This document shows, piece by piece, positions 30,910 through 64,000 of a stretch of DNA of 64,000 nt. Source of the stretch: Dehalococcoidia bacterium (GTDB lineage: Bacteria > Chloroflexota > Dehalococcoidia > Lucifugimonadales > UBA3495); assembly GCA_965220625.1 (NCBI GenBank), contig CBDCQN010000003.1, positions 1,994,186 to 2,058,185 of the forward strand, given 5' to 3'. Numbering within the stretch: the stretch's first letter is position 1; the number at the start of each line of letters is the position of its first letter. The notes beneath the pieces are model-generated. The model worked only from the letters and a program-made list of their open reading frames with translations. It made no database searches and was not told where the DNA came from. Made by a program: the position numbers and the translations under genes.

Positions 30910-30991
30910 GTAAGTGTTCAGTCCCGGTGAGAAGCCCCCGCCGCACCCCTGTGGATACCGGCTTTCGCCGGTATGACGAAAGGACTGACTT
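30910..30991. repeat. REP-like element, copy B (69-nt core identical to copy C)
   Basis: 30910-30978 is identical by eye to 48558-48626. The matching tail cgcttattggcagaccgtcac sits at 31100-31120, after an inserted GEG/PSP-type hairpin repeat. Confidence 0.85.
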
Positions 30992-31432: not shown

Positions 31433-31572
31433 GGTCATTTAATTGTCCGCTCCTCCAAATGGGGGAGGGATAGGGTGGGGGAGTCCCCTGACGTGAGCGA
31501 CCATCGCTATTGCCAGTATTTCACCCTCACCCCAACCCTCTCCCTCTAGGGAGAGGGAGAATTAAAAGGCCC
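31433..31572. repeat. MITE-like 140-nt element E1 with imperfect terminal inverted repeats
   Basis: Starts ggtcatttaattg and ends gaattaaaaggccc. Roughly 85-90 percent identical by eye to the reverse complement of 45418-45555. Two internal GC hairpins. Confidence 0.8.
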
Positions 31573-31611
31573 TTTCGCCATGCTAGAATGGGGACGAGGT
31601 GTAAGGCCGTC

Positions 31612-32169
31612 ATGACTACGAGAACCAAATCTATCACCGCCGACGAACTTCTGGCTATGCCGCGCGGAGATGGCACACGCTATGAGCTTATCCGTGGAGT
31701 TTTGATTCAGAAAATGCCTACCGGTACTCCTCACGGCCTCACCGTCAGCAATACAGACTTTGTCTTAAACCACTACTGCCGGTCCACCGACTATGGTGAT
31801 ACAGTTGCCGCAGACCCTGGTTATCTGCTGGACCGGGACCCCGACACCGTTCGCGCGCCAGACATTGCGTGGTTCGCTCCAGGGAGGCTTACTTCGGTTG
31901 GGCCTGGGTTCCCGGAATTAGCCCCTGACCTGGCGGTGGAAGTCAAATCACCCAGCAACTCCAATCCCGAAATGGCCGCCAAGGCGGCAATGTGGCTCAG
32001 CTACGGTTCGCAAGAATCGTGGGTGCTCGACCCGGAGCACACCGTAGTCACGGTCTACCGCCCAAACGCCGAGCCGGTAACGCTGACAGAAGACGACACC
32101 CTTGACGGCGGCGACTTGTTGCCCGGCTTCACCTCCCCAATCTGGCAACTTTTCCGCCGCCGCCGCTAG
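31612..32169 (+). CDS. Uma2 family (DUF820) PD-(D/E)XK endonuclease-like protein
   Basis: YELIRGVL...APDIAWF...PDLAVEVKSPSN...SWVLDPE..VTVYRP are Uma2 motifs. ATG 31612 after GAGGTG, with tgctagaat upstream. Confidence 0.8.
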   Translation: MTTRTKSITADELLAMPRGDGTRYELIRGVLIQKMPTGTPHGLTVSNTDFVLNHYCRSTDYGDTVAADPGYLLDRDPDTVRAPDIAWFAPGRLTSVGPGFPELAPDLAVEVKSPSNSNPEMAAKAAMWLSYGSQESWVLDPEHTVVTVYRPNAEPVTLTEDDTLDGGDLLPGFTSPIWQLFRRRR

Positions 32170-32267: not shown

Positions 32268-33575
32268 ATGTTCCCCCACTCCGTATTTCCTGACACCGCT
32301 GAAATCAACGGCGACGGCCATTTGATTATCGGCGGTTGCAGCTCCCTGGATTTGGCCGAAGAGTACGGCACGCCCGTCTACATTCTAGACGAGCAGACGA
32401 TTCGGGCCCGCTGCCGGGAGTTCTTCGGCGAGTTCCGACAGCGTCACGCCGACAGCCGCGTCAGCTACGCCTGCAAGGCCTACATCAACCCGGCGTTGAC
32501 CCGGCTGCTCCAAGAGGAGGGGATGGGGTTCGACGTGGTGTCCGGTGGCGAGCTGGCCACCGCCATTAGCGCCGGCGTCCCGCTTGACGAAGTCTATTTC
32601 CACGGCAACAACAAGACCCCTCAAGAGCTGATTGAAGCCTTGGACCATTCGATCGGATGGGTGGTGGTGGACAGCTTCCACGAATTGGACTTGTTGGACC
32701 GGTTGGCCGGCGACGCCGGAAAGAAACAGGACATACTCCTTCGGGTGTCCCCGGGCATCGACCCCCATACCCACGTTTACACCACCACCGGCATCCTGGA
32801 CTCCAAGTTCGGGTTCTCCATCCAGACCGGAGACGCCGCCGAAGCCGTGCGCCGCGGGCTGGCGGCGGAGAACCTCAAGCTCAGAGGGCTGCATTTCCAC
32901 CTCGGTTCGCCGGTGTTCGAGTTGGAGCCGTACCGGGTGGCCACCGAGTTGGTGCTGCGGTTCGCGGCCGAGTTCCGCGAAGAAGGACTCGCGATGCAGC
33001 GGTTCAGCCCCGGCGGCGGGTTCGCCGTGGCCTATACCCGGGACCAGCACCCCCCCTCGGTGGCCGACTACGCGGAAGCCATCGTCTCGTCCATGAGCTC
33101 CACATGCCGGGAACTCGGCATGGAGCCGCCGACCCTGGTCATCGAGCCGGGCCGTTCTATTATCGGCCCGGCAGGCGTGGCCCTTTACCGGGTTGGGGCC
33201 ATCAAAGACGTGCCCGGAGTCCGCAAGTTCCTCAGCGTAGACGGCGGAATGGGCGACAACATCCGCCCGGCCCTGTACCAGGCCGAATACGAGGTCGTCG
33301 CCGCCAACAAGGCGTCTCTGGAACCGGTGGAGAAAGTCACGGTAGCGGGAAAGTACTGCGAGTCCGGCGACCTCTTGGCCTCGGATATCATGCTGCCCGA
33401 AATCGCCTCCGGAGACCTCCTGGCCATCCCGGCGGCAGGCGCATATTGCCCGTCTATGGCCAGCAATTACAACCTCAACCCACGGCCTCCCATGGTGCTG
33501 GTGTCCGGCGGCCGCAGCCGGTTGATTCGCCGCCGGGAAAGCTACCAAGACATGATGCACTGCGACGTCGCCTGA
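32268..33575 (+). CDS. lysA: diaminopimelate decarboxylase
   Basis: GTPVYILDE, YACKAY (PLP lysine), HFHLGS, EPGRSI and CESGD are motifs of fold-III decarboxylases. Confidence 0.95.
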   Translation: MFPHSVFPDTAEINGDGHLIIGGCSSLDLAEEYGTPVYILDEQTIRARCREFFGEFRQRHADSRVSYACKAYINPALTRLLQEEGMGFDVVSGGELATAISAGVPLDEVYFHGNNKTPQELIEALDHSIGWVVVDSFHELDLLDRLAGDAGKKQDILLRVSPGIDPHTHVYTTTGILDSKFGFSIQTGDAAEAVRRGLAAENLKLRGLHFHLGSPVFELEPYRVATELVLRFAAEFREEGLAMQRFSPGGGFAVAYTRDQHPPSVADYAEAIVSSMSSTCRELGMEPPTLVIEPGRSIIGPAGVALYRVGAIKDVPGVRKFLSVDGGMGDNIRPALYQAEYEVVAANKASLEPVEKVTVAGKYCESGDLLASDIMLPEIASGDLLAIPAAGAYCPSMASNYNLNPRPPMVLVSGGRSRLIRRRESYQDMMHCDVA

Positions 33576-52945: not shown

Positions 52946-53872
52946 TTAGTCCCGCAGGCCGGCGCCCGTAAGACCCAAGTAGACGTCTTCGAGGGTCACC
53001 GGGGTTATCTCCAGGTGTTCCAGACCGAGGTCAGAGTTGCCTATCTCGCTCAATACGGCGTTGAGACCGCCGGCGCCGTCTTTCAGCCGCAGGACGTAGG
53101 TGGTTGCTTCGCCGGTCTCCATTTGGGTAATGTCCACTCCTAGGGAGGCGAAGCGGGAGGCGTCCAGAGGCCTGGACAAGACCAACTTGACCGAGTAGGC
53201 GGCTTTCACGCCGTGGACCAAATTCTCCACCGAGTCCACCGCCAACAGCCTGCCGCCGTCCATAATGGCGATGCGGTCGCAGAGGGCTTCCGCCTCTTCC
53301 ATGTAGTGGGTGGTGAGCAGCACGGTAACCCCGCTTTCCCGGATGTCGCGCACCAGGTCCCACAGGTTGCGCCTGGCCTGGGGGTCGAGGCCGGTAGTGG
53401 GCTCGTCCAGGATCACCACCTCGGGTGAATTGACCAAGCTTGCCGCCACGGCGAACCGCTGTTTCTGCCCGCCGGACAACTGGCGGTGGTAGCTCTTGGC
53501 CCGGTCGGCCAGCCCCACCTGTTCCAGCAGGGTTCGCGGCGAGACCCGCCGGGGATAGAAGCTGCCGAGGAGGGAGATAGTCTCGGAGAGGGTGAGGTAA
53601 TCGTAATAGGAGGAGGACTGCAGTTGCACCCCGATCCGGGACTTCACCTGCCGGGACCGGGTACGGACTTCCAACCCCAGCACCTCCACCGATCCTTCCG
53701 TAGGGGTCTGCAGGCCTTCGATAATCTCCAGGGTCGTGGTCTTGCCCGCGCCGTTGGGTCCCAGTATTCCGAAAATCTCACCGCGTTCGACGGAGAACGT
53801 GACGCCGTCGACTGCGGTTAGAGACCCGAACCGTTTGACCAAGCTTTCGACTCGGACCGCATGCTCCATCAC
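52946..53872 (-). CDS. ABC transporter ATP-binding protein
   Basis: Walker A GPNGAGKTT, signature LSGGQKQR, Walker B VVILDEPT. Confidence 0.9.
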   Translation of the reverse strand: MMEHAVRVESLVKRFGSLTAVDGVTFSVERGEIFGILGPNGAGKTTTLEIIEGLQTPTEGSVEVLGLEVRTRSRQVKSRIGVQLQSSSYYDYLTLSETISLLGSFYPRRVSPRTLLEQVGLADRAKSYHRQLSGGQKQRFAVAASLVNSPEVVILDEPTTGLDPQARRNLWDLVRDIRESGVTVLLTTHYMEEAEALCDRIAIMDGGRLLAVDSVENLVHGVKAAYSVKLVLSRPLDASRFASLGVDITQMETGEATTYVLRLKDGAGGLNAVLSEIGNSDLGLEHLEITPVTLEDVYLGLTGAGLRD

Positions 53873-53918
53873 GAGGAAAAATCATATCACAACGCGGTAC
53901 GGCCCCGTCGGGCGGGTT

Positions 53919-54064
53919 GCTGTTTAATTTAATGCTTCATTGCGGCCCCGAGCCGGAATCCGGAACGTTTGCTGGTGTCCCCTTCGCCTTGGTTAAGGGG
54001 TTGTGCGCGGCAGGATTCCGGCTGCGGCCGGAAAGACAGGGGATTTTTCCGACGATCAAAAGGC
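53919..54064. repeat. MITE-like element E4 (right half homologous to E3)
   Basis: ggattccggctgcggccggaaagacaggggatttttccgacgatcaaaagg parallels 34765-34815. Left end is gctgtttaattt. Confidence 0.65.
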
Positions 54065-54125
54065 TCTGTCCCTCACTTCTCCCGCCTTGTGTTAATATGA
54101 GCTACAACCTACGGAGGAATGGAAT

Positions 54126-54599
54126 ATGGCAGCGGATGTTGGTCAGGCAGCCCCGGACTTCAACCTTTACGATTTCGACCGTCAGCAGCGCAAGCTGAGC
54201 GACTTCAAGGGCCAGAACGTGGTGCTGGCCTTCTTCCCCGGCGCGTTCACCGGCGTATGCACCACCGAGATGTGCACCTTCCGGGACCGGAACGACGCCC
54301 TGAATTCGCTGAACGCCCAGGTGTTGGGCATCAGCGCCGACCCGCCCTTCGCCCAGAAGGCTTGGGCCGACCAGAACAACCTCAACTTCACCCTGCTCAG
54401 CGACTTCAACCGGGAGGCCATCTCGGCCTACGACGTCGCCCTGCACAACCTGGCCGGTATGGAAGGCTACGTGGCCTGCCAGCGGGCCGTGTTCGTGGTG
54501 GACAAAGAGGGCGTGATCCGCTTCAAGTGGGTCGGCGAAACCCCCCTGAACGAGCCCGACTACGACGAGGTCCAAGCCGAGGTCGGCAAACTGGGCTAA
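54126..54599 (+). CDS. peroxiredoxin (AhpC/TSA, Bcp-like)
   Basis: APDFNL...VVLAFFPGAFTGVCTTE contains the peroxidatic Cys motif. Confidence 0.85.
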   Translation: MAADVGQAAPDFNLYDFDRQQRKLSDFKGQNVVLAFFPGAFTGVCTTEMCTFRDRNDALNSLNAQVLGISADPPFAQKAWADQNNLNFTLLSDFNREAISAYDVALHNLAGMEGYVACQRAVFVVDKEGVIRFKWVGETPLNEPDYDEVQAEVGKLG

Positions 54600-54635
54600 A
54601 GTCCCATTCACCCCGGGAAAAACGAGGAAGAACGA

Positions 54636-54666
54636 GTTGCCCACCTCCAGAACCGAGGTGGGCAAC
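54636..54666. terminator. stem-loop downstream of the peroxiredoxin gene
   Basis: gttgcccacctc cagaacc gaggtgggcaac gives a perfect 12-bp stem followed by tgtcatt. Confidence 0.55.
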
Positions 54667-54724
54667 TGTCATTCCGGCCCTGTTGGGATGCCGGCCTTTC
54701 TTCCGTCACTCCGCCACCCCTTCC

Positions 54725-54914
54725 GTCATTCCGGCGAACGCCGGAATCCACGTCGCCTCTGCGGTGTCTCTTAAAGGGCGCCGTACAGCCGGATATGTTT
54801 GATGGATTGGCGTGGATGGGCTTTGGCTATCCCAGGAGTTGCCCGTAGACTGGAACTGACCTGCTGTCCCTGAGAGTTGGGGTTACGTGGATTCCGGCGT
54901 TCGCCGGAAAGACG
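54725..54914. repeat. inverted pair of 28-nt ggattccggcgWWcgccggaa REPs flanking about 133 nt
   Basis: gtcattccggcgaacgccggaatccacg (54725-52) versus cgtggattccggcgttcgccggaaagacgg (54886-914). The reverse complement matches with one mismatch over 28 nt. Confidence 0.75.
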
Positions 54915-54983
54915 GCATCTCTGCGAAGGTAACGGCACCCCTGGACCCCAACTCCGGGATGACCCGCGTTGTTGCCAAGTTAG

Positions 54984-56477
54984 TCAATCTTGGACCATTA
55001 TCGGGCTGGGCGATAAGCCGGCGGCTATTTCCTCGAGTTGCTCCAGGGCCGCCCGAAGGTCTTCTACAATCTCCTCAGCGATTTCGTCCGGCGGCGGCAG
55101 GCTTGCCGAGTCTTCCATGCTCTCGTCGCGGAGCCAGAAGATGTCGAGGTTGGCCTTGTCGCGCTTGACCAGCTCGTCGTAGGTGAAGCGGCGGAAGCGT
55201 TCCGTCTCCTCGCGTTGCATCCGGTTTTCGGGGTTGTAGCAGGCCACGAAGTCGTCCAGGTCGGCGCGGGTCAGCGGGTTGGTCTTGAGGGTGAAGCGGC
55301 GGTTGGTGCGCAGGTCGTAGATCCACAGCTCCTTGGTCCACGGCGTCTCGCTGGCCGGCTTGCGGTCGAAGAACAGCACGTTGGCCTTGACGCCCTGGGC
55401 GTAGAAGATGCCCGTCGGCAGACGCAGCAGGGTGTGGACGTCGCACTCGGCCAGCAGCCGGCGGCGAACCGTCTCCCCGGCGCCGCCCTCGAACAGCACG
55501 TTGTCCGGCACCACGATGGCCGCCCGCCCGGTGTTCTTCAACAGGGTGCGCACGTGCTGCAGGAAGTTGAGCTGCTTGTTGCTGGTGGCGGCCCAGAAGT
55601 CGGGACGCTCCACCGTGAGCGACTCCCGCTCCGACTCGCCCTCGCTGTTGACGAAGGTCAGGCTGGACTTGCGGCCGAAGGGAGGGTTGGTCAGCACCAT
55701 GTCGTAGTTGACCCCTGGATGGGCCCGCAGGCTGTCGTCCACGGTGATATTGGTCTCGTCGCCGCCGATGCCGTGGAGGTAGAGGTTCATGGCGCAGAGC
55801 CGCGCCGCGCTGTCCACGATCTCCCAGCCGTGCAGGGCGTCCCGCTGGAGCCGCTCCCGCTGGCCCCGGTCCATGGACGGGTGGCGGTCGACGATGTAGT
55901 CGTGGGCGGCCAGCAGAAAGCCGCCGGTGCCGCAGGCCGGGTCGCATAAGGCGTCGTCGGGGCCGGGGCGCATCACGTCCACGATGGCCCGGATCAGCGG
56001 GCGCGGCGTAAAATACTGCCCGGCGCCGGTCTTCACGTCTTGGGCGTTGCGCTCCAGCAGCGACTCGTAGGCGTCGCCCTTCACGTCGGCGTCCATCGAC
56101 AGCCAGTTCTCGCTGTCGATGAGCTCCCGGACCAGCCGGGTCAGCATGGCCGGTTCCTGGATCCGGTTCTGGGCCTTGCGGAAAATTACGCCCAAGGTGC
56201 CGGGCTGACCGCCCAGCGTCTCCAGGGTGCGCCGGTAGTGGGATTCCAACTCGTCGCCGTCCCGGGCCAGCAGGTCGGCCCAGCCGTAGCCGCCGGGGAT
56301 GGGCGGAGGCCGGTAGCCGGGCAGCAGGGTGTAGGGTGGGCGGCTGCGCTCGTGCATCATCTTGAGGAAGATGAGGTAGGTGAGCTGCTCCAGGTAGTCG
56401 CCGTAGGACAGCCCGGCGTCGCGCAGGATGTTGCAGTAGTTCCACAGCTTCTGCCCGATGTTCACCGAGGTCGTCAT
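54984..56477 (-). CDS. hsdM: type I restriction-modification system methyltransferase subunit
   Basis: N-terminal HsdM domain (LWNYCNILRD...), AdoMet motif DPACGTGGFL and catalytic NPPFG. Confidence 0.95.
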   Translation of the reverse strand: MTTSVNIGQKLWNYCNILRDAGLSYGDYLEQLTYLIFLKMMHERSRPPYTLLPGYRPPPIPGGYGWADLLARDGDELESHYRRTLETLGGQPGTLGVIFRKAQNRIQEPAMLTRLVRELIDSENWLSMDADVKGDAYESLLERNAQDVKTGAGQYFTPRPLIRAIVDVMRPGPDDALCDPACGTGGFLLAAHDYIVDRHPSMDRGQRERLQRDALHGWEIVDSAARLCAMNLYLHGIGGDETNITVDDSLRAHPGVNYDMVLTNPPFGRKSSLTFVNSEGESERESLTVERPDFWAATSNKQLNFLQHVRTLLKNTGRAAIVVPDNVLFEGGAGETVRRRLLAECDVHTLLRLPTGIFYAQGVKANVLFFDRKPASETPWTKELWIYDLRTNRRFTLKTNPLTRADLDDFVACYNPENRMQREETERFRRFTYDELVKRDKANLDIFWLRDESMEDSASLPPPDEIAEEIVEDLRAALEQLEEIAAGLSPSPIMVQD

Positions 56478-56485
56478 GCTGTTGC

Positions 56486-57211
56486 CTACTGAGCGTCGAA
56501 AATCAGGGCGCGGACATCGAACACGAACCCCGGCAGTTCGGGCGCGCCGGTCAACTGCTCCGGGTCGTCCAAGGTGATGGGTTCGGCGCCGGGGCGGTAG
56601 ATATGCGCCTGCCGCCGGAAGGGATCAATGAGCCAGCCCAGCCGCCCGCCGTGGGCGATATATTCTTCCATCTTGCGCCGGGCCGCCGACGGACGGTCAT
56701 TGCGCGACATCACCTCCACCACGAAGTGAGGGCAGAAACGCAGCAGCCATGTCCCGCCCGAAGCCGCGTAGTCCGCCAGTTGTTCCGGGGACAGCCAGGC
56801 CGCGTCGGGAGCGTAGCGCGCACCGTTGGGCAGTTCGACGCCCAGCCGCGAGCCGTGGACCTCACCACCATGCTCCCGCGCCCAGACGTACAATTCCGCG
56901 CCGAATGTCAACTCAAATCGCGAACCCAATATGCCCGGCATAGGCGATACCAGCAACCTTCCCTCTGCATCCAACTCCAGCTTGCCCGCCATTGTCCTGT
57001 TGGCCTGGTTGAACTGGACCAGCCATTCGTTAAGCCGTTCGCCAACGTAGCCGGCCTCGGCCAATACTTCCAGGACCGGCCCGAACTCCAGGCAGATGGG
57101 CAGGGACAGGGGGTCCCGCTCAAGCCGGGCCTCATCGGATGCCATTGCCGGCCCATGTATATCGGGTTTGGCAACCATTTCGCTCACCGTCCTTACCGGC
57201 CAGTATGCCAC
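56486..57211 (-). CDS. Uma2 family (DUF820) PD-(D/E)XK endonuclease-like protein embedded between hsdS and hsdM
   Basis: LLVSPMPG..., YAPDAAWL, PHFVVEVMSRND, GWLIDPFRRQAHIYRPG and LPGFVFDV. Lies 3 nt after the hsdS stop and 8 nt before the hsdM start. Confidence 0.75.
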   Translation of the reverse strand: MAYWPVRTVSEMVAKPDIHGPAMASDEARLERDPLSLPICLEFGPVLEVLAEAGYVGERLNEWLVQFNQANRTMAGKLELDAEGRLLVSPMPGILGSRFELTFGAELYVWAREHGGEVHGSRLGVELPNGARYAPDAAWLSPEQLADYAASGGTWLLRFCPHFVVEVMSRNDRPSAARRKMEEYIAHGGRLGWLIDPFRRQAHIYRPGAEPITLDDPEQLTGAPELPGFVFDVRALIFDAQ

Positions 57212-57214
57212 AAA

Positions 57215-58738
57215 TCACCGCGTCACCTTCCTCTTGCCGCGCCTCCTGGGCTTGCTCTTGACGGTGGCCAACGCCTGCGCTTCCGCCTCGCGCTCGGCCC
57301 TGATTCGCTCCAGGAGCGCGGACGCCGGCTCGTCGCCGGGGTCCTGAGGGACGAGCTTGCCGGAGAACGCCTGCTTGAGGATGCTTTGGCGCAGCCGCTC
57401 CGCCCGCGCCAGGCTGGCCTCCACGGCGGCCTCCGCCTGCTGGACGACCGACAGCCGCCGCTCCACCTCCGCCACAATGCGGCGCTGCTCAGCCAACGGC
57501 GGGAGGGGGATGGGCATCGTGTGAATCAGCGACAAGCTGACGTTATTCTGCCCCGCTGACGATGCCGCATTCTGTTCGATGAAAGCCCTTCCCAACTGAC
57601 TCGTTGAGTATATGTGAAACCACTTCGGTATGAACTCGGCTTCCATCAATCGAAACCGGAGAAGGTACGATGCGAAACCGTGGTACGGCTTCAAATCTGA
57701 ATGCACCACCGCTGTCTTGCCGACGAGTCGGACGCTGCCGTTAGTCCGGCACATGAGGACATCCCCTTTGGCGAGGGACGTTTCAGAGTCAATCTTGACA
57801 GGCTGGATGGCGTACTTGATGTCCGCAAGGTCGATCTCACCAGCGACTATGTTCGGGATACGAAGTACGGGCACCCCAGTTGCTTCGTAACTGCACTTTA
57901 CGGATGTGCCGTATTCGCTTCGGGCAAGTAGCTGCTCAACCACCGCCCACGCCCACCCCTCCGGCAATTCCGGCAGGGTGGAGGTGGCCGGTGCGGAGGG
58001 ATCCTTGTACTGACCCCGCCGCTTCTCCTGGGACTCCCAGCGGGCGCGGCGCTCGGCCAGGATGCGCTCCAGCAGGACGCCGGCGGGTTCGTAGTCGCGG
58101 TCCTCGGAGCGGGCCAGAGCGGCCTCGGTGGGGACCAGCCGGCCCTCGCAGGCGGCCTTGAGGACGCTGGCCCGGTAGCGCTTCAGGTTGGCCCGCGCCC
58201 GCCGCAGCGCGGCAACGGAGGCGTCCAGCCGCGTGAACTGCGTTTCGATTTCGGCGACGATGCGGTGTTGCTCGGCGAGGGGTGGAACGGGAAATGGGTA
58301 GTTCGAAAAGGTGTTTCCTCTAACTCTCATCAGAGAGCCACCAACTCCTGATGCGTTGGCCGAAAGAAAATCTCTAAAGGCATCTAGCCGCATGTAGTAC
58401 GCAAGAAAATGAGAAAATACATCATCTACTGGAGAAAATCCAAGCCATTCAGTTGACGCTATCTTTTGGTGGTCCGAATACTCACCAACCACCCAGGTGC
58501 GATTTATTCGAGGGTTAATTTTGCAAAGGAGAACAGTATCGTTGTCAACAGTTTGTTTGCTTGAACCGATTTCACCCCCAGATACAATTTCGGGCCTTCC
58601 TTCTGAGAAACTGGGAACGCTATAAAGCTCAAATGTCTGTCGAGGCGTTTTGCTAGGGGTGATGGACTTGGATTTGTCCCGGCGAACATAGCCGAGAGTA
58701 GTAATCGCCCAGCCTGCGGGGAAGTCTGCCTGGGTCAT
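57215..58738 (-). CDS. hsdS: type I restriction-modification specificity subunit (two TRDs)
   Basis: Two conserved spacers, LAEQHRIVAEIETQFTRLDA and LAEQRRIVAEVERRLSVV, separate two variable target-recognition domains. Confidence 0.9.
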   Translation of the reverse strand: MTQADFPAGWAITTLGYVRRDKSKSITPSKTPRQTFELYSVPSFSEGRPEIVSGGEIGSSKQTVDNDTVLLCKINPRINRTWVVGEYSDHQKIASTEWLGFSPVDDVFSHFLAYYMRLDAFRDFLSANASGVGGSLMRVRGNTFSNYPFPVPPLAEQHRIVAEIETQFTRLDASVAALRRARANLKRYRASVLKAACEGRLVPTEAALARSEDRDYEPAGVLLERILAERRARWESQEKRRGQYKDPSAPATSTLPELPEGWAWAVVEQLLARSEYGTSVKCSYEATGVPVLRIPNIVAGEIDLADIKYAIQPVKIDSETSLAKGDVLMCRTNGSVRLVGKTAVVHSDLKPYHGFASYLLRFRLMEAEFIPKWFHIYSTSQLGRAFIEQNAASSAGQNNVSLSLIHTMPIPLPPLAEQRRIVAEVERRLSVVQQAEAAVEASLARAERLRQSILKQAFSGKLVPQDPGDEPASALLERIRAEREAEAQALATVKSKPRRRGKRKVTR

Positions 58739-58986
58739 CCGCCGGTCTCAATGGCGACCTGTTGCGACACATCGAGGGCCGGGATTTCCACCTCCACGGC
58801 GGAGTAGTTGGGCTGAGGGACGGTATCGCCGTCCTCCAGCATCCCTTCGACGTGGAAGTTGGCGGCTTCTTCAATAAGGTTACGGGTTTCCTCGAAGGTG
58901 TCGGCGGCGGCTATGCAGCCGGGCAGGTCGGGCAGGTGGGCCGAATAGCCGTTGCCGGTCTTGCAAATTATTGCCACGTATTTCAT
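58735..58986 (-). CDS. HicB-like (UPF0150, RNase H-fold) antitoxin-type protein without DNA-binding domain
   Basis: MKYVAIICKTGNGYSAHLPDLPGCIAAADTFEE. The stop overlaps the hsdS start (ATGA at 58735-58738). Start trimmed to ATG 58986. Confidence 0.7.
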   Translation of the reverse strand: MKYVAIICKTGNGYSAHLPDLPGCIAAADTFEETRNLIEEAANFHVEGMLEDGDTVPQPNYSAVEVEIPALDVSQQVAIETGG

Positions 58987-59407
58987 CGGTAATCCCTCGT
59001 CCATAGAACGCCGCCGCGCCGCGCTCAGGTAGCTGCGGACGCCAACTGCGCAGCCGCGTTGAAGGCAGTTTCCGAAGGGTCTGATTGTGCGGGTCCACCT
59101 CAACTCCGATTGATTCCAGAGCGGTTACTCCCAGCAGCGGTCCCGCGTCCGGCGGGCCGCAGACGATGGTTGCACCAGCGATTTCTCCCATAAACTCGAT
59201 ATCGCCGGTGGTGACATCCATTCTGATTTCGCTGCCGTCCGCCAAGCCGTATACCCGCTGGCCTTTAGGGAACAGGCCAAGGGCGTCAAGGTGTTGCTTC
59301 GGCACGAGGCAGTCTACGGCTCCGGTATCCACCAGGAACAGACCTTCCCAAGTCCGTTCCGGTTCGGCCGGGTTGCGTATAGTGGCCGTTACGTGTGTGA
59401 TACCCAT
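58880..59407 (-). CDS. retropepsin-like (clan AA) aspartic protease
   Basis: LFLVDTGAVDCLV (D-T-G active site) and LLGVTALESIGVEVD. An Arg-rich 3' tail overlaps the next gene by 107 nt. Confidence 0.65.
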   Translation of the reverse strand: MGITHVTATIRNPAEPERTWEGLFLVDTGAVDCLVPKQHLDALGLFPKGQRVYGLADGSEIRMDVTTGDIEFMGEIAGATIVCGPPDAGPLLGVTALESIGVEVDPHNQTLRKLPSTRLRSWRPQLPERGAAAFYGRGITDEIRGNNLQDRQRLFGPPARPARLHSRRRHLRGNP

Positions 59408-59432
59408 TTCAACTCCCGAATAATTCTCCTGC

Positions 59433-59666
59433 TCAGGATTTAGCCAGAAGCTCCATCAGCAGCCGGTTGCGCTCAACGCTGGCATAGTAGCAGGCCATAA
59501 CTTCGGGGCGCACATTTTCCGGGAGCTTGCTCTTGAAGTAATCCCACATGGCCTCTTCCAAGACTTCCTCGGAATCCCGGCCCTCACGCCGGGCAATCTC
59601 GCGCATCGCGGCCAGCAGCTCCGGTACAGCTTGGCCGGTAAACTTTTCCCGTGCGGCGACCATCAC
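59433..59666 (-). CDS. ribbon-helix-helix-like small protein (antitoxin-type)
   Basis: FTGQAVPELLAAMREIARREGRDSEEVLEEAMWDYF fits a strand-helix-helix (CopG/RHH) pattern. Confidence 0.45.
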   Translation of the reverse strand: MMVAAREKFTGQAVPELLAAMREIARREGRDSEEVLEEAMWDYFKSKLPENVRPEVMACYYASVERNRLLMELLAKS

Positions 59667-59704
59667 ATATCTCCTGTCAATTATCTACCCGTCTCAACGG
59701 CAAT

Positions 59705-59932
59705 TTACTCGCTCGTGATGGGGCGCTGGACTTCCACCTCGATGGCTGTGCTCACGGGTTCCGGGATGGCCTCTCCATGCTCGGTCATCAACTCAACGTG
59801 GTCCACGACCGCCCCAGTGATGAGCGAAACAACTTCCTCCCTGGTCTCCCCCGCGGCGACGCAGCCCGGCAGGTCGGGGATATAGGCGCCGTAGCTGGTG
59901 GGTCCCCTTTCGATGATGACGGTGTATTTCAT
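59705..59932 (-). CDS. HicB-like (UPF0150) antitoxin-type protein, N-domain only
   Basis: MKYTVIIERGPTSYGAYIPDLPGCVAAGETREE. Paralog of 58735-58986. Confidence 0.7.
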   Translation of the reverse strand: MKYTVIIERGPTSYGAYIPDLPGCVAAGETREEVVSLITGAVVDHVELMTEHGEAIPEPVSTAIEVEVQRPITSE

Positions 59933-59944
59933 CGGGTACTTCTT

Positions 59945-60125
59945 ATCTAAGGAACCTCTGAATAAGCCAGCGACATGGCTGCGAAAGCCGTGAATCCGGA
60001 GGGTAGATTAGGGAACTCAGCTATGCAATGAGCGCCGGCACCCCCATCCTAACCTTCCCCCGCGACGGGGTAAGGGTCTTGTTCAGAGGTTTTCTAATCT
60101 ACCCCCGCCTGCGGGAAGGTCTTGT
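59945..60125. repeat. repeat-dense spacer with interleaved inverted repeats and a GEG/PSP-type hairpin
   Basis: The reverse complement of aacctctgaa (59953-62) matches ttcagaggtt (60082-91). ggtagattag (59999-) pairs with ctaatctacc (60094-). ggtcttgtt is duplicated. Confidence 0.55.
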
Positions 60126-60129
60126 TGTA

Positions 60130-60375
60130 TCACCTGCTGAACAATTCCCGCATCAACTCGTCTTGTCCAATCTCCAGATATACAGAAACTTGCCCAATAA
60201 TTTCTTCCAATGTGCCAACTCTAACAGGGTTATGACGCGGAACAGAGACATAATGTTCATAGCCCATAATGGTTGAGACCAGTCTCATGTGGCTACCCCT
60301 TTGCCGGGTAAGGTTGTAGCTGTATTTCCGGCGTAGCAGGGTAACAAGCTCCATACCGGATAGATTCCGAGGCAT
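60130..60375 (-). CDS. hicA: HicA family mRNA interferase toxin
   Basis: LSGMELVTLLRRKYSYNLTRQRGSHMRLV...VSVPRHNPVRVGTLEEII. ATG 60375 lies 2 nt after the upstream stop. Confidence 0.8.
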   Translation of the reverse strand: MPRNLSGMELVTLLRRKYSYNLTRQRGSHMRLVSTIMGYEHYVSVPRHNPVRVGTLEEIIGQVSVYLEIGQDELMRELFSR

Positions 60376-60377
60376 TC

Positions 60378-60782
60378 TCACACGGGTATGACTTCTTTTT
60401 GGACCAGGTGTATCCGAATCGCCTGGGGCGCTTCGCCGTCGTCGAAGTGGCACAGCACCGCGTCCCGCATCATGTAAATCAATTCATCCCAATCGTCGCC
60501 CTGGGTGATTATGCTCTGCCCGACGGCACTGGCTGAGTAGCCGCCGTCGGGGGATTCCCTTACCCGGAAAACTATTTCCGTGTCAGGATTACCGAGGGAT
60601 CCCTGCTTTCCGGCTTCCAGAACTTTCTCTTTGAGAAACTCCAGCCTTCCGGCTTTGATGTCCTCTTGAAGCTGACGGTCCCACCGCTCCCAGTCGTGGT
60701 CCCATACCCACTTCATCAAATCGGAGAATTCAGCTTCGGGTAAAGCCAGGATATCCTGCGCAATCTCCGCCACAGTTCTCAT
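60378..60782 (-). CDS. antitoxin-type fusion: N-terminal addiction-module-like helix domain plus C-terminal HicB-like fold
   Basis: N-terminal ILALPEAEFSDLMKWVWD...WDRQLQEDIKAGRLEFL. C-terminal EIVFRVRESPDGGYSASAVGQSIITQGDDWDEL. Immediately precedes hicA. Confidence 0.55.
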   Translation of the reverse strand: MRTVAEIAQDILALPEAEFSDLMKWVWDHDWERWDRQLQEDIKAGRLEFLKEKVLEAGKQGSLGNPDTEIVFRVRESPDGGYSASAVGQSIITQGDDWDELIYMMRDAVLCHFDDGEAPQAIRIHLVQKEVIPV

Positions 60783-60832
60783 ATAAGGCCCTCACGCGTC
60801 CATTTCCACCCATTATACCGCCGTCCTCCGGC

Positions 60833-63658
60833 CTACCCCGCCAGTGCGAGGTTCAGCTCCTCCAGCAGCGCCGCCAGCCCGTCGCCGAACACCTCGTAGG
60901 CTCGGCCGATGCCGCCGCGCTGAGCGAAGGGGGACAACTGGAGGTCGCCAGGGTCGATGCTGACGCTGCCGGCGATGTGGTCCTTAATGTCATTCAGCCA
61001 CTGGCGCTGCTCGTCGGTGAAGGAGCGTCCGGCGATTTCCTGGGTATCCAGCCAGCCTTGGAACCGTTCCTCAACACGCTCGGCGAAGGGCGCCAGTTCC
61101 TCATCGTTTCCAATGGCGTAGCGCACCAGCGACACAATGTCGGCCATCACCCGCTGGCTGGAGCCGCGCACCCGGGACTGCTCAAGCTGCCGGTAGGCGG
61201 CCCACAGCCGTTCCGGAGTCCAGGAGCGGGGCGGGCTTGCCAGCGAATCGGCCAAGGCCCGGATTTCCGCATAGCTCAACCGCTGGCTGTAGGGCCGCTG
61301 GTACAGCACTTGCAGCGCGGTTATCTCGTCCCGGTTCTCCTCGATGTACTCCCGGAAGGAGCGGGTGAGCGCGTCGGCCTCCGTCCCGGAGAACTCCGCC
61401 CGGACCACCGTATCCTGGGATACCGTGTCGATGGTCTGCTCGTAGGCGCGGTGGGTATCGATCAGCCGTTGCCGCAGTTCCGGGTTGGCGGCGAAGGGCC
61501 TGGCCGCCGCATCCAGCAGTTGCCGCGCCGCTTGGGCTATGGCTTCTTCCGGCGGGTCGTCCTGCCCGGTGGCCGCCCGCGCCGCGTCCAGGGCGGCGTC
61601 GGGATCGGTGGCGGTGAGCAGCTCCCTGACCAGCTCCTTCAAGGTAGAGCCTCCGGCCACGTCCTCCACCGCCTGCCGGTCTTGGGGCGAGAGCCGCCGG
61701 TCAAGGCGGGCGAGACGGCTGGCCAGTGACGACAGGGTGTCAGGCTCACGGTCGCCCATGGCCACCATGTCCAGCAGCTTGTCGAAGGCCACCGACGGGT
61801 GGCGGTCCAGCGAGTAGGACTCGGACAGCTCGCTCTCGGTGACGCCCACCGCGTCCACTATAACGAAGCGGTCCTTGCCATCGGCGTCGGGCGTAACCGC
61901 GTTGAAGTCGGTGGCGGAGATGGTGCGGACGCCGCGCCCCTTCATCTGCTCGAAGAAGTTGCGGCTGCGCACGTTGCGCATGAAGAACACCACCTCCACC
62001 GGCTTGATGTCGGTGCCGGTGGCGATCATGTCCACGGTGACCACGATGCGGGGGTTGAAGCTGTTGCGGAACTGCGTGATCAGGTCCTCGGGCCTCGCCC
62101 CGGTGGTGCGGTAGGTGATCTTCTGGCAGAAGTCGTTGCCCTTGGCGAACTCCTCCCGCACGATGTTCACGATGTCGTCGGCGTGGCTGTCGTCCTTGGC
62201 GAAGATGATGGTCTTGGGCACGTGCTGGCGTCCGGGAAAAATCTCGGTCGTTACCCTGTCGCGGAAGGTCTGGATGACCGTGCGTATCTGGTCCGTTGCC
62301 ACCACGTCGCGGTCGAGTTGGCCGGGCGTGTAGGTCAAATCCTCGTCCAGTTCCTCCCAACGCTTATCGCGGGTGCGCCGGTCGCGCCGGTCCACCTTCA
62401 GGCCGGCCTCGATGGTGGCCCCTTCCTCCGTGATCTTCGTCTCGATGCGGTAGACGGTGTAGCCCACGTTGATGCCGTCGGCCACCGCCTGCTGATGGTT
62501 GTACTCCATCACCAGGTTCTGGTTGAAGAAACCGATGGTCTGCTTGGAGGGCGTGGCGGTCAGCCCGATGAGGAAGGCGTCGAAGTATTCCAGCACCTGC
62601 CGCCACAGGTCGTAGATGGAGCGGTGACACTCATCGGTGATGATGAAGTCGAACTCCTCGATGGGGAAGTTCCGGTTGTACTCCACTGTTTGCGGAGAGG
62701 GCCGGGTCGAGGCCACGTCATAGCCGGAGGGCTCGTCCATCTCCGGGTCCAGCTCCTCACCCTTCAGCATGGAGTAGACCCTTTGGATGGTGGCGATGCA
62801 CACCCGGCTGACCGGGTCGATGCTGGCGGACTGGAGGAGCTGGACGTTGTAAAGCTCGGTGAACTTCCGTCCGTCGCCGGGCACGGTGAAGCCTTGGAAT
62901 TCCCGGAGCGTCTGCCGGGCCAGGTTGCTGCGGTCGACGAGGAACAGCACCCGCCGGGCGCCGGCGTGCCGGATGAGCCGGTACACCTGGTTGCAGGCCA
63001 TGAACGTCTTGCCGCTGCCCGTCGCCATCTGCACCAAGGCGCGCGGCCGGGCCTCGGCCAGCGACTGTTCCAGGTTCCGGATGGCCTGCCCCTGCACCGT
63101 CCAGAGATTGGAGTCGTCCAGCGGCGGCATCGCGGTCAACCGGCGACGCAGGCTGCGATGGGTCCGATAACCCCCGCCGCCAGCGTCCGCTATCAGTTCC
63201 GGCCCATCCGGCGACGTTCCAACAGAGGCGTCCCGCGCACCCAGCCACCCGGCCAGCGTTTCCGGAGTATGGAAGGAGAAGACGTTCCTGCTGCGCGGCT
63301 GGGGATCGAGGCCGTTGGTAAACCGGGTCTCAACACCGGTGCTCTCATACAGGAACGGCAGGGGGCGCCTGTGGGCGGGCAGGTTGTCGGGAAGGCCCGC
63401 GCCGTACTTCTCGGACTGTATTTCGACGCCGGTAAGAGAGTGCCCCTCGGGCTTGGCTTCCACTACCCCTGCCGCCTTGCGGTCGACATAGAGAAGGTAG
63501 TCTGCCCCTCCATGACCCGGCTTCAACGAAAACTCCCGGACCGCTACTCCGTTGCTGGCGTACAGGTTGATGGATGAGGCGTCCTGCACCGCCCACCCGG
63601 CTTGCTCCAGCATCCTGTCTATATTGACCCGAGATTGTCGTTCCGGTGTCATCGCCAT
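60833..63658 (-). CDS. hsdR: type I restriction endonuclease subunit R (DEAD/DEAH helicase-nuclease)
   Basis: 941 aa. N-terminal nuclease region, Walker A MATGSGKT, DEAH-box ITDECHRS, and helicase C motifs. Confidence 0.95.
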   Translation of the reverse strand: MAMTPERQSRVNIDRMLEQAGWAVQDASSINLYASNGVAVREFSLKPGHGGADYLLYVDRKAAGVVEAKPEGHSLTGVEIQSEKYGAGLPDNLPAHRRPLPFLYESTGVETRFTNGLDPQPRSRNVFSFHTPETLAGWLGARDASVGTSPDGPELIADAGGGGYRTHRSLRRRLTAMPPLDDSNLWTVQGQAIRNLEQSLAEARPRALVQMATGSGKTFMACNQVYRLIRHAGARRVLFLVDRSNLARQTLREFQGFTVPGDGRKFTELYNVQLLQSASIDPVSRVCIATIQRVYSMLKGEELDPEMDEPSGYDVASTRPSPQTVEYNRNFPIEEFDFIITDECHRSIYDLWRQVLEYFDAFLIGLTATPSKQTIGFFNQNLVMEYNHQQAVADGINVGYTVYRIETKITEEGATIEAGLKVDRRDRRTRDKRWEELDEDLTYTPGQLDRDVVATDQIRTVIQTFRDRVTTEIFPGRQHVPKTIIFAKDDSHADDIVNIVREEFAKGNDFCQKITYRTTGARPEDLITQFRNSFNPRIVVTVDMIATGTDIKPVEVVFFMRNVRSRNFFEQMKGRGVRTISATDFNAVTPDADGKDRFVIVDAVGVTESELSESYSLDRHPSVAFDKLLDMVAMGDREPDTLSSLASRLARLDRRLSPQDRQAVEDVAGGSTLKELVRELLTATDPDAALDAARAATGQDDPPEEAIAQAARQLLDAAARPFAANPELRQRLIDTHRAYEQTIDTVSQDTVVRAEFSGTEADALTRSFREYIEENRDEITALQVLYQRPYSQRLSYAEIRALADSLASPPRSWTPERLWAAYRQLEQSRVRGSSQRVMADIVSLVRYAIGNDEELAPFAERVEERFQGWLDTQEIAGRSFTDEQRQWLNDIKDHIAGSVSIDPGDLQLSPFAQRGGIGRAYEVFGDGLAALLEELNLALAG

Positions 63659-63689
63659 AATCGTAACTGTTCAGACTTGATATTTCATT

Positions 63690-63905
63690 CCCGGCCTTGA
63701 ACAAATATCCCCTCCGCCCGCGCACGGGGGAGGGTTAGGGTGGGGGCGCCTTCGTTGAAGGCGTCTGCTGGATTCGGGGAGGTCGAGCGCCAATGGCCCC
63801 CCTTCCTAACCTTCCCCCCCTTCCCCCCGCCGGGGGGAAGGGACAGGTGTTTTTCCTCCCCTCAAGGGGGGAAGGGCCACGTGTTTTTCGCAATGACAGC
63901 CGCAA
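63690..63905. repeat. cluster of GEG/PSP-type GC hairpin REPs
   Basis: gggagggttagggtggggg, ccttccccccgccggggggaaggg and cctcccctcaaggggggaaggg are hairpins upstream of hsdR. Confidence 0.6.
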
Positions 63906-63935
63906 TTGTATGGCAGCGCCAACCATCACCCCCCG

Positions 63936-64000
63936 TCACTCGTGTATCTCTTCGCCGCAGTGGGGGCAGATTCGGGTTTCGTGCTCCCGGCGGCGTTGTA
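63936..64000 (-). CDS. 3' end of an unidentified gene (zinc-ribbon-like C-terminus), truncated by window edge
   Basis: The minus-strand frame reads ...QRRREHETRICPHCGEEIHE then a stop at 63936-63938. Only 20 codons are visible. Confidence 0.3.
   Translation of the reverse strand, partial: QRRREHETRICPHCGEEIHE

Follow-up and report, generated by a model that had tools for sequence, protein, structure and literature searches.

The R-M operon and its cargo genes

The window analysed here is a stretch of 64,000 nucleotides (nt) of contig CBDCQN010000003.1 from a Dehalococcoidia bacterium (assembly GCA_965220625.1), and it holds a type I restriction-modification (R-M) operon that carries other genes, the cargo, between its hsd genes. 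The open reading frame (ORF) list of positions 53000-64000 has ten genes between 54984 and 63658, all on the minus strand and in the order first noted: hsdR, a fused antitoxin-type gene (p134), hicA, a HicB-like gene (HicBN), an RHH-like gene, a gene for a retropepsin-like protease, a second HicB-like gene (HicBl), hsdS, a gene for a Uma2-family nuclease, and hsdM. The gene order, the strand and nearly all coordinates of the original prediction for this locus were borne out by the list and by the Pfam, NCBIfam and PADLOC identities of the products. The same holds for its claim that cargo is embedded in a type I R-M locus, as the cargo is co-oriented and tightly packed, and hsdR, hsdS and hsdM are intact. 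The spacers, when read in the sequence, are 50 nt between hsdR and p134, 2 nt between the stop codon of p134 and the start of hicA, 197 nt between hicA and HicBN, and 38 and 25 nt on the two sides of the RHH-like gene. Two features noted earlier were seen directly, namely the ATGA in which HicBl overlaps the start of hsdS and the 8-nt gap between Uma2 and hsdM. The gap between hsdS and Uma2 is 36 nt and not 3 nt as noted, because the start of Uma2 is now placed at the ATG at 57178.

The hsdR gene (60833-63658) encodes a restriction/translocase subunit of 941 amino acids (aa), in which Pfam matched ResIII (E = 1.4e-34), DEAD, Helicase_C and EcoEI_R_C (E = 6e-42), and PADLOC matched REase_I (E = 1e-42). 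The translation, 94% identical to HsdR of L001 (related loci are referred to by L numbers), has the D...EAK nuclease motif in its N-terminal part, DECH as helicase motif, and the tail EcoEI_R_C. The subfamily models gave 188.8 bits for NCBIfam restrict_EcoAI (cutoff 550) and 372 bits for PRK11448 (cutoff 729), both below the cutoffs; the EcoEI_R_C domain suggests that the protein may be EcoEI/EcoAI-like. The predicted N6-adenine methyltransferase HsdM (54984-56477, 497 aa; PADLOC MTase_I, E = 2e-191) matches N6_Mtase (E = 2e-66) and HsdM_N in Pfam and has the motifs DPACGTGGF and NPPFG. HsdS (57215-58738, 507 aa; PADLOC Specificity_I, E = 2e-98) has two target-recognition domains and two conserved repeats; the internal repeat D2 was detected in it, and its identity to relatives is only 41-63%. 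With the helicase core and PD-(D/E)xK nuclease of HsdR, HsdM, and an HsdS with two target-recognition domains, the operon is by its predicted products a type I R-M system.

The first cargo gene, p134 (60378-60782), was recognised by comparison with related loci as two antitoxin-type domains joined in one protein of 134 aa. Its residues 1-64 (aN) are found elsewhere as a separate gene of 66-69 aa followed by a gene for a ParE-like toxin, and residues 66-134 (aC) as a separate gene of 63-70 aa followed by HicA. The fusion has no Pfam, NCBIfam or PADLOC match, and the match of its aC half to the HicB-like profile in hhalign is weak (E = 0.009, low probability). A single-sequence AlphaFold2 model (pLDDT 46) gives helix-helix-helix and then beta-beta-beta-alpha-beta, and this order would, at the low confidence of the model, agree with a fusion of antitoxin domains. 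The hicA gene (60130-60375, 81 aa), of a subtype here called HicA7, scores 27.2 bits with PF07927 (HicA_toxin) against a gathering threshold of 27. It contains RGSHMRL with the catalytic G-S-H motif and matches the PHROG 'toxin' family phrog_353, so that a HicA dsRBD-like toxin domain is predicted. HicA7 is a narrow family of 72 clusters, with precomputed PF07927 on most homologues, and it is the sole toxin gene remaining in the array of the window.

HicBN (59705-59932, 75 aa; Pfam HicB_lk_antitox, E = 1.4e-12) and HicBl (58735-58986, 83 aa; HicB_lk_antitox) are HicB-like antitoxin-domain genes and both are orphans here. In other loci they are found after the canonical toxin gene, HicA4: HicBN in L004, L011, L167 and L169-L171, and HicBl in 21 loci. 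The RHH-like protein (59433-59666, 77 aa) belongs to a subtype that follows HicBN, and a sister subtype precedes Doc in 18 loci. No Doc homologue was found in the window at E <= 1, so the RHH-like gene is without a Doc neighbour. The earlier label 'RHH' has behind it a weak RHH_1 match (E = 0.06) and the Doc pairing of the sister subtype. With the RHH family profile the best sensible matches among PDB sequences were Arc (E = 0.07) and Omega (E = 1.1), both weak, and the profiles of RHH, aN and aC were uninformative against these sequences. HicBN and the RHH-like gene were also considered as one frameshifted HicB; this seems less likely, as the pair is kept as two ORFs in L011, L167 and L169-L171. 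For the cargo as a whole, PADLOC, NCBIfam and PHROGs gave nothing beyond HicA/HicB labels, TIGR03698 for the protease and a weak match of Uma2 to PDC-S03.

Related loci and turnover of the array

With HsdM as the query, 80 loci were found in a collection of species-representative genomes. The top 52, at 79-96% identity, come from Dehalococcoidia, Chloroflexota, SAR202 and Caldilineaceae metagenome-assembled genomes, several of them from sponge bins, and a protein deposited under the sponge Geodia barretti (P0229) points likewise to sponge association. The proteins of the window were mapped on all loci, the ORFs from hsdR to hsdM were called and clustered, and representatives were scanned with Pfam; architectures were taken from best-hit family calls in the 66 loci of the lineage. 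These 66 related Chloroflexota loci have 53 different architectures, and in only four of them is hsdR directly followed by hsdS. The gap between the two genes is filled by aN and then a ParE-like toxin (PF24732), by an RHH-like gene and then Doc (PF02661, E = 4e-17), by the canonical 68-aa HicA4 (PF07927, E = 1e-16) and then a HicB-like gene, and by aC and then a HicA7 of the type found in the window. Occasionally the cargo is a single gene, encoding the protease, an AbiJ-like protein (AbiJ_NTD4 with DUF7014/Abi_C; HEPN), a DUF5677 protein or a membrane protein. In distant taxa (63-71% HsdM identity) hsdR mostly abuts or overlaps hsdS, and any cargo that they have is of a different kind and placed, as a rule, between hsdS and hsdM.

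L001 comes from a close relative and is orthologous to the locus studied here; its hsdR, Uma2-hsdM and both flanks are 92-97% identical to the window at the nucleotide level. Its array reads aN, ParE, RHH, Doc, aC, HicA4, HicBl, aC, HicA7. The array of the window reads fused aN-aC, HicA7, the 197-nt spacer, HicBN, RHH, protease, HicBl, and that of L011 has 15 genes. Remnants of the ParE-like, Doc and both HicA4 toxins were not detectable in the window at E <= 1. The HicBN-RHH block of the window is 92% identical to L011 and begins 1 nt before the ATG of hicBN; upstream of this point L011 has a HicA4 gene and the window has the spacer (59933-60129), which occupies the place of the canonical hicA in relatives. 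The spacer bears the dispersed repeat GGGGGAAGGTTAGGATGGGGG at 60041-60061, and we take it for an insertion of a dispersed repeat. Between the protease-HicBl block and L023 the identity is 90%, and the limits of the homology blocks coincide with those of genes. The alignment of orthologous hsd loci, which had been suggested as a check, thus showed that the cargo is variable and not conserved.

The variation was also seen between nearly identical contigs. Those with an identical HicA7 protein and common flanks have three different arrays and different hsdS genes, and in those with an identical protease as sole cargo (L081-L087, identical flanks) it is hsdS that differs. Copies of the hsdR 3' end were found inside the arrays of L004 (6960-7076), L005 (6919-6999), L022 (8299-8445), L024 (7314-7487), L050 (7751-7840), L082 (5411-5527) and L001 (5807-5883), and they resemble what unequal recombination between R-M loci would leave behind. 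IS transposases were seen only in L032 and L175, and the spacers of the arrays are 2-50 nt and module-specific. No integron integrase or other integrase-like family appeared among the clustered array ORFs and gene tables, although no dedicated search for IntI or attC was made. Modules could be exchanged by homologous recombination anchored in the 3' end of hsdR and in hsdS/hsdM, and the hsdR/hsdS junction appears to be a recombination hotspot in this sponge-type Chloroflexota lineage.

Some other features of the related loci were observed at the same time. At the strain level hsdS is hypervariable (L081-L088, L167-L175), with differing lengths, split or truncated forms and an IS insertion; in the same strains the flanks, hsdR and the adjacent cargo protein are identical. 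The unit aC - HicA4 - HicB-like, with a canonical HicA between two HicB-like genes that differ from each other, recurs 17 times (for instance L001 6615-7283; L011 5163-5832 and 5857-6497). AbiJ-like genes (L013, L016, L020, L052) and a DUF5677 gene (L010 6489-7688) lie directly upstream of hsdS, and in L014 and L044 there is a gene of 386-388 aa between hsdS and hsdM with a weak match to PD-T7-5. Compared with PADLOC, the cargo of the sister loci gave only weak PDC and PD-T7-5 matches.

Toxin-antitoxin pairing and selection

The toxin-antitoxin (TA) genes of 67 loci are paired in an asymmetric manner. Of 83 toxin genes (ParE-like, Doc, HicA4, HicA7), 82 adjoin their cognate antitoxin-type gene, and HicA7 is preceded by aC in 17 of 17 cases; among the antitoxin-type genes 63 of 162 are without a toxin neighbour. 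In TA biology the loss of a toxin is harmless and the loss of an antitoxin is lethal. The asymmetry is what TA biology predicts and argues for self-contained TA modules, and it is the opposite of what is expected of toxins guarded by an R-M complex. It is likely that the locus is an intact type I R-M operon with both internal junctions colonised, in which the hsdR/hsdS junction holds a fast-turnover array of self-contained type II TA modules. The array of the window appears toxin-depleted, the aN-aC fusion with HicA7 being its only complete pair, and HicBN, RHH and HicBl would be antitoxin-type genes left behind after loss or replacement of their toxins, which in relatives are HicA4, Doc or ParE-like. 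Each toxin would then be neutralised by the antitoxin encoded next to it and not by the R-M complex, and the modules would be independent addiction or abortive-infection modules that travel with the R-M operon.

The ratios of nonsynonymous to synonymous substitution rates (dN/dS) were 0.07-0.10 for the protease, 0.13-0.16 for p134, 0.11-0.17 for both HicA7 and HicBN, 0.19-0.31 for HicBl, 0.4-0.5 for RHH (against its closest copies) and 0.16-0.43 for Uma2, as compared to 0.12-0.19 for hsdR and hsdM (0.13-0.18 for hsdR alone). Purifying selection acts on every cargo gene (dN/dS 0.07-0.5), the orphans among them, which are therefore not plain pseudogenes. The result bears on the possibility that the array is functionless debris, a junction that tolerates insertions and is filled with small, decaying hitch-hikers. 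The window is short of three or four toxin genes compared with its relatives, a repeat element replaces one of them, the stop of the protease gene is frameshifted, and fused, truncated and duplicated fragments are common in the sister arrays, all of which would fit with decay. However, dN/dS for p134, HicA7, HicBN, HicBl and the protease (0.07-0.3) is as low as that of the hsdR and hsdM genes, every reading frame is open, and recurrent gene pairs and triplets have been retained across dozens of loci, so we regard mere debris as unlikely.

The cargo is associated with hsd operons far above chance: about 200 cargo-family matches were found in 212 kb within hsd operons, and 872 kb of flanks gave 28 raw matches, about 15 of them real, most or nearly all of which adjoin hsd genes (L024, L025). 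The excess of flank matches comes from mis-set intervals; those of L004, L022 and part of L024 are actually inside the operons. In the rest of the 64-kb window there are no cargo-family genes except one distant second Uma2. Some points weigh against a simple array of self-contained modules. The flank sample is about 10 kb per side, which limits the estimate of the enrichment. That aN, aC and RHH are antitoxins is suggested by gene neighbourhood and by weak profile or secondary-structure likeness. Both the antitoxin-type orphans and the protease show good conservation and may have another role than that of a decayed TA array. Furthermore, HicA7 members of at least 70% identity are found in this R-M operon, just upstream of hsdS, and a 65%-identical relative is found after panC, where it forms an independent pair with a gene of 69 aa upstream of it; the near-exclusive R-M location of the HicA7 and Uma2 subclades (at least 70% identity) could reflect a functional tie.

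Such a tie was the essence of the original prediction, according to which HicA, the protease and/or Uma2 could be held latent under HsdRMS, as PrrC is, and be freed by a phage anti-restriction protein to give abortive infection. PrrC and RloC are established effectors embedded in type I hsd operons, and the general idea is that of a second line of defence linked to R-M. The likeness to PrrC, which lies in the type IC hsd locus of EcoprrI, is that of an extra effector gene inside a type I hsd operon (PMC12707154). The subclades of HicA7 and Uma2 (at least 70% identity) are found only within this R-M lineage, the protease and Uma2 have no antitoxin-like partner, and Uma2, tightly packed between hsdS and hsdM, broadly tracks the identity of hsdM, which can all be taken in favour of a guarded effector. 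PrrC, however, is an ABC-ATPase with a HEPN-type anticodon nuclease, held latent by the enzyme and freed by T4 Stp, and no such architecture was found by Pfam, NCBIfam or PADLOC in any cargo protein of the window, nor that of RloC. HicA7 always has its own antitoxin-type gene, which in the window lies immediately upstream, and most of the window cargo consists of antitoxin-type genes with their toxins gone. Relatives of HicA (65% identity), the protease (63-76%) and Uma2 (57-63%) are found outside R-M loci. Cargo that varies independently of the hsd genes had been named beforehand as evidence against the guard idea, and this is what was found: L001 has a different array although its hsd genes and flanks are nearly identical, and arrays differ as well between strains whose HicA proteins are identical. 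A guard of the PrrC kind is thus very unlikely here.

Candidate promoters and coupling to hsdS

A -10-like box, TATAAT (60812-60817, minus strand), was found by eye and by comparison in the 50-nt spacer between hsdR and p134. A similar TAtAaT box lies 25-30 nt past the hsdR stop in L001, L168, L003, L018, L004 and L167, and arrays that begin with aN, the window included, carry it after the hsdR stop. The box is a candidate start of a transcript of the cargo, hsdS, Uma2 and hsdM. No -35 box was found with it, and for this reason it was not called in a consensus promoter scan, which called no promoter for the cargo and, on the minus strand, gave one weak sigma-70-like site, inside hsdS. On the minus strand the array is free of terminator-like sites, and the region scanned has just one on that strand, in hsdM. 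In at least 14 loci the start of hsdS has a 4-nt overlap with the last cargo gene, irrespective of the family of this gene, which can be HicA7, HicBl, AbiJ-like, membrane protein or protease. The promoter-like boxes, the 4-nt overlaps and the lack of an internal terminator-like site together suggest that the array is co-transcribed with hsdS-(Uma2)-hsdM. Each module would supply a promoter and operator of its own, with transcription running on into these genes.

In RHH-Doc modules that come right after the hsdR stop, we observed a palindrome, TCAAGAT-N3-ATCTTGA, overlapping a TTGAC -35-like box, with a -10-like box about 17 nt further on. The palindrome was seen in the first 60-90 nt past the hsdR stop in L011, L019, L020, L027, L040, L046 and L052, and it is probably the operator of the RHH antitoxin.

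These observations raise the question of a role for the modules in control or addiction. They could make the R-M system addictive by post-segregational killing, and their autoregulated promoters could set the level of hsdS-hsdM relative to hsdR. In relatives without cargo hsdR directly overlaps hsdS, and the inserted modules bring either palindromic operators over TTGAC -35 boxes or the TATAAT box. The translational coupling of the last cargo gene to hsdS, whatever its family, points in the same direction, as does the fact that nearly every locus of the lineage retains at least one module and that antitoxin-type genes are under purifying selection even without toxins. On the other hand, loci with only the protease or without cargo look intact (L021, L026, L038, L039, L081-L087), and Pfam recognised no DNA-binding domain in the HicB-like and aC proteins. 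A role of this kind, which overlaps with the self-contained TA array and does not exclude it, is possible but doubtful.

A bolder version would be that in sponge-associated Chloroflexota the hsdR/hsdS junction of this R-M lineage is a dedicated docking and expression site, at which strains swap TA modules through recombination at the 3' end of hsdR. Array and enzyme would then be functionally linked, with module promoters under antitoxin control driving a translationally coupled hsdS-(Uma2)-hsdM, and the conserved orphan antitoxin-type genes would be a standing repertoire against HicA, Doc and ParE toxins from mobile elements. If true, the type I system would be made both addictive and stress-responsive, but we consider this a speculative and rather improbable extension.

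The protease and the Uma2 nuclease

The retropepsin-like protease (58880-59407, minus strand) matches TIGR03698 over residues 6-111 with 68.6 bits (cutoff 57.35). The catalytic motif is found in LVDTGA, with DTGA at residues 27-30, so that the protein is predicted to be a retropepsin-like aspartic protease of clan AA. The natural length is 127 aa, relatives having 125-127 aa and the L023 copy being 98% identical. A 1-nt deletion near 59027, where L023 reads ...CAGATACCATAA and the window ...CAGCTACC-TGA, removes the stop and adds a tail of 48 aa, and for this reason the ORF runs 107 nt into HicBl. The family is large (5251 matches). An 81%-identical member is the sole cargo of an hsdR-prot-hsdS-hsdM operon, and a 72%-identical member lies outside R-M, between ggt and an acyl-CoA dehydrogenase gene. 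Among 66 JGI metagenome relatives (mostly 59-76% identical) and P0093, none had hsd neighbours; the metagenome relatives adjoin housekeeping genes (truA, hisD, hisC-like) and in these 66 loci have no conserved partner. It appears that the protease is an unrelated stand-alone gene that has landed in the array. The wider family (L097-L162; L165 4273-4632) stands alone in many environments, at 63-81% identity and a dN/dS of about 0.08. The RHH-like gene and the protease were also considered as a TA-like pair and rejected: depending on the locus the protease follows hsdR, aC, HicBN or RHH, and the 66 metagenome loci gave it no conserved neighbour.

Uma2 (56486-57178, minus strand, 230 aa) is a Uma2-family nuclease of the PD-(D/E)xK type (PF05685, 97.1 bits against 27, E = 1e-27). 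The ORF extends to a GTG at 57211, but homologues have 230 aa and M12 is invariant, and the true start is almost certainly the ATG at 57178. E79, D136, E166 and K180 are invariant in 16 sequences, in embedded homologues and in the next tier alike, and together with the family match they identify a predicted Uma2 nuclease. The gene lies between hsdS and hsdM in 12 loci of the genome collection, and in 17 of 67 loci overall, window included. Homologues of at least 70% identity form an R-M-embedded clade, and those of the next tier (57-63%) occupy a conserved non-R-M site between a luciferase-like gene and apbA. Judged from these positions, Uma2 has become stably inserted between hsdS and hsdM within a single subclade, and its sister clade stands alone elsewhere in the genome. 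P0229, deposited as a 'type I restriction enzyme M protein' of the sponge Geodia barretti, consists of Uma2 fused to HsdM_N; most likely the DNA is that of a symbiont and was assembled with the sponge, and the gene caller joined two genes into one.

The protease and Uma2 might also be accessory subunits, the protease regulating the enzyme (e.g. by proteolysis of HsdR in restriction alleviation) and Uma2 being an extra nuclease subunit of the R-M complex. It would fit with this that the protease is the sole cargo, with a 4-nt overlap with hsdS, in L081-L087 (identical flanks) and in L021, that it is very strongly conserved, and that Uma2 is fixed between hsdS and hsdM in its subclade with an intact predicted active site. 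But the metagenome relatives of the protease and P0093 are without hsd neighbours and sit beside housekeeping genes, the sister clade of Uma2 is found at a conserved site outside R-M, and most loci of the lineage lack both genes. An accessory function is therefore extremely improbable.

Comparison with known systems

Nesting of genes in type I R-M operons is already known (PrrC, DarTG2, guilt by embedding), and the locus of the window is not a new system. A DarTG2 TA module lies between hsdS and hsdR of a type I operon, and this junction has been called a potential recombination hotspot (PMC12255303). As here, the TA module is nested in and co-oriented with the R-M operon, next to hsdR. The families in our loci are instead HicAB, Doc and ParE-like, there is a multi-module array and not one pair, the order is hsdR-cargo-hsdS-hsdM, and the strain-level turnover is extreme in this lineage. 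In contrast to PrrC, the toxins of these arrays have their own antitoxins and the cargo is variable. RptR was not noted among the annotated genes of the window or the array families of related loci, although no dedicated search for it was made.

The same general phenomenon, with the same interpretation, is found in two surveys. Payne et al. (2024, bioRxiv 10.1101/2024.01.29.577857) describe 17,432 embedded genes in type I R-M, BREX and DISARM and the PADLOC PDC candidates, and Matelska et al. (2017, PMC5499597) describe PIN-type TA coupled to type I R-M in arrangements that are not conserved between close species. Compared with the PDC candidates, the cargo of the window matches no PADLOC model save the weak match of Uma2 to PDC-S03. 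A lineage-wide multi-TA array with strain-level turnover, the aN and aC types and an embedded Uma2 clade are not described in the portions available of PMC12707154, PMC12255303, PMC5499597 and bioRxiv 10.1101/2024.01.29.577857.

The arrays can be compared with two other arrangements. Unlike canonical HicAB, the HicB-like proteins here are without the usual DNA-binding domain, and aN and aC are not in Pfam. TA cassettes accumulate in chromosomal superintegrons, and the likeness to these cassettes and to HicAB, Phd-Doc and ParDE consists in small two-gene modules with the antitoxin next to the toxin, toxins that are not left unpaired, common orphan antitoxins and tandem accumulation in a variable region; the array here, by contrast, is inside an operon and translationally coupled to hsdS. 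In Campylobacter jejuni, Miller et al. in 2005 reportedly described type I hsd loci of the form hsdR - variable ORFs - hsdS - variable ORFs - hsdM, with strain-variable rlo genes. Those loci differ from the present ones in having rloA-H, including RloC, in being type IC, in having no tandem TA array and in belonging to another phylum.

The search for new immune systems now makes use of nesting in type I R-M operons, and the present loci offer an unusually rich natural experiment on it: a single junction with about ten module families and, among 66 loci, 53 architectures, with variation down to the strains of one population. They show how a nest is built, by unequal recombination, by toxin loss that leaves orphan or fused antitoxins, and by replacement with repeat elements, and their value is that of a natural model for the assembly and decay of defence and TA nests in R-M operons. 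Toxin pairing may serve as a simple sequence rule that separates self-contained TA cargo from R-M-guarded effectors. A gene such as the widespread retropepsin-like protease also calls for caution, as an embedded gene is not automatically a defence effector. The comparison further flags conserved, uncharacterised items, namely the aN and aC antitoxin types, the narrow HicA7 clade and the R-M-embedded Uma2 clade.

Dispersed repeats and other observations

Two dispersed repeat families flank the locus at both ends, in agreement with the earlier claim of flanking repeats. The first, GGGGGAAGGTTAGGAWGGGGG, has six copies in the window against 0.02 expected (31058, 31461, 45508, 60041, 63726, 63798), and the second, TCATTCCGGCGAACGCCGGAATCC, has four against 0 expected (30953, 48601, 54726, 54889). 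An inverted pair of the second repeat (I1; 54723-54915, no strand assigned) lies just downstream of hsdM, and a cluster of dispersed repeats (D9, D19 and I8; 63726-63889, no strand assigned) lies upstream of hsdR. The 197-nt spacer had been described as repeat-dense; a repeat is present, but only one copy of one dispersed repeat was found. The spacer was also considered as a structured RNA or riboswitch and rejected, since its fold is no better than that of shuffled sequences (z = -1.08) and Rfam gave no match in 54000-64000.

A second, free-standing Uma2 gene was observed on the plus strand at 31510-32169, 34% identical to the embedded one over the C-terminal part. A lysA-like gene (32268-33575) follows closely downstream of it, and the repeat copies at 30953, 31058 and 31461 are next to it.

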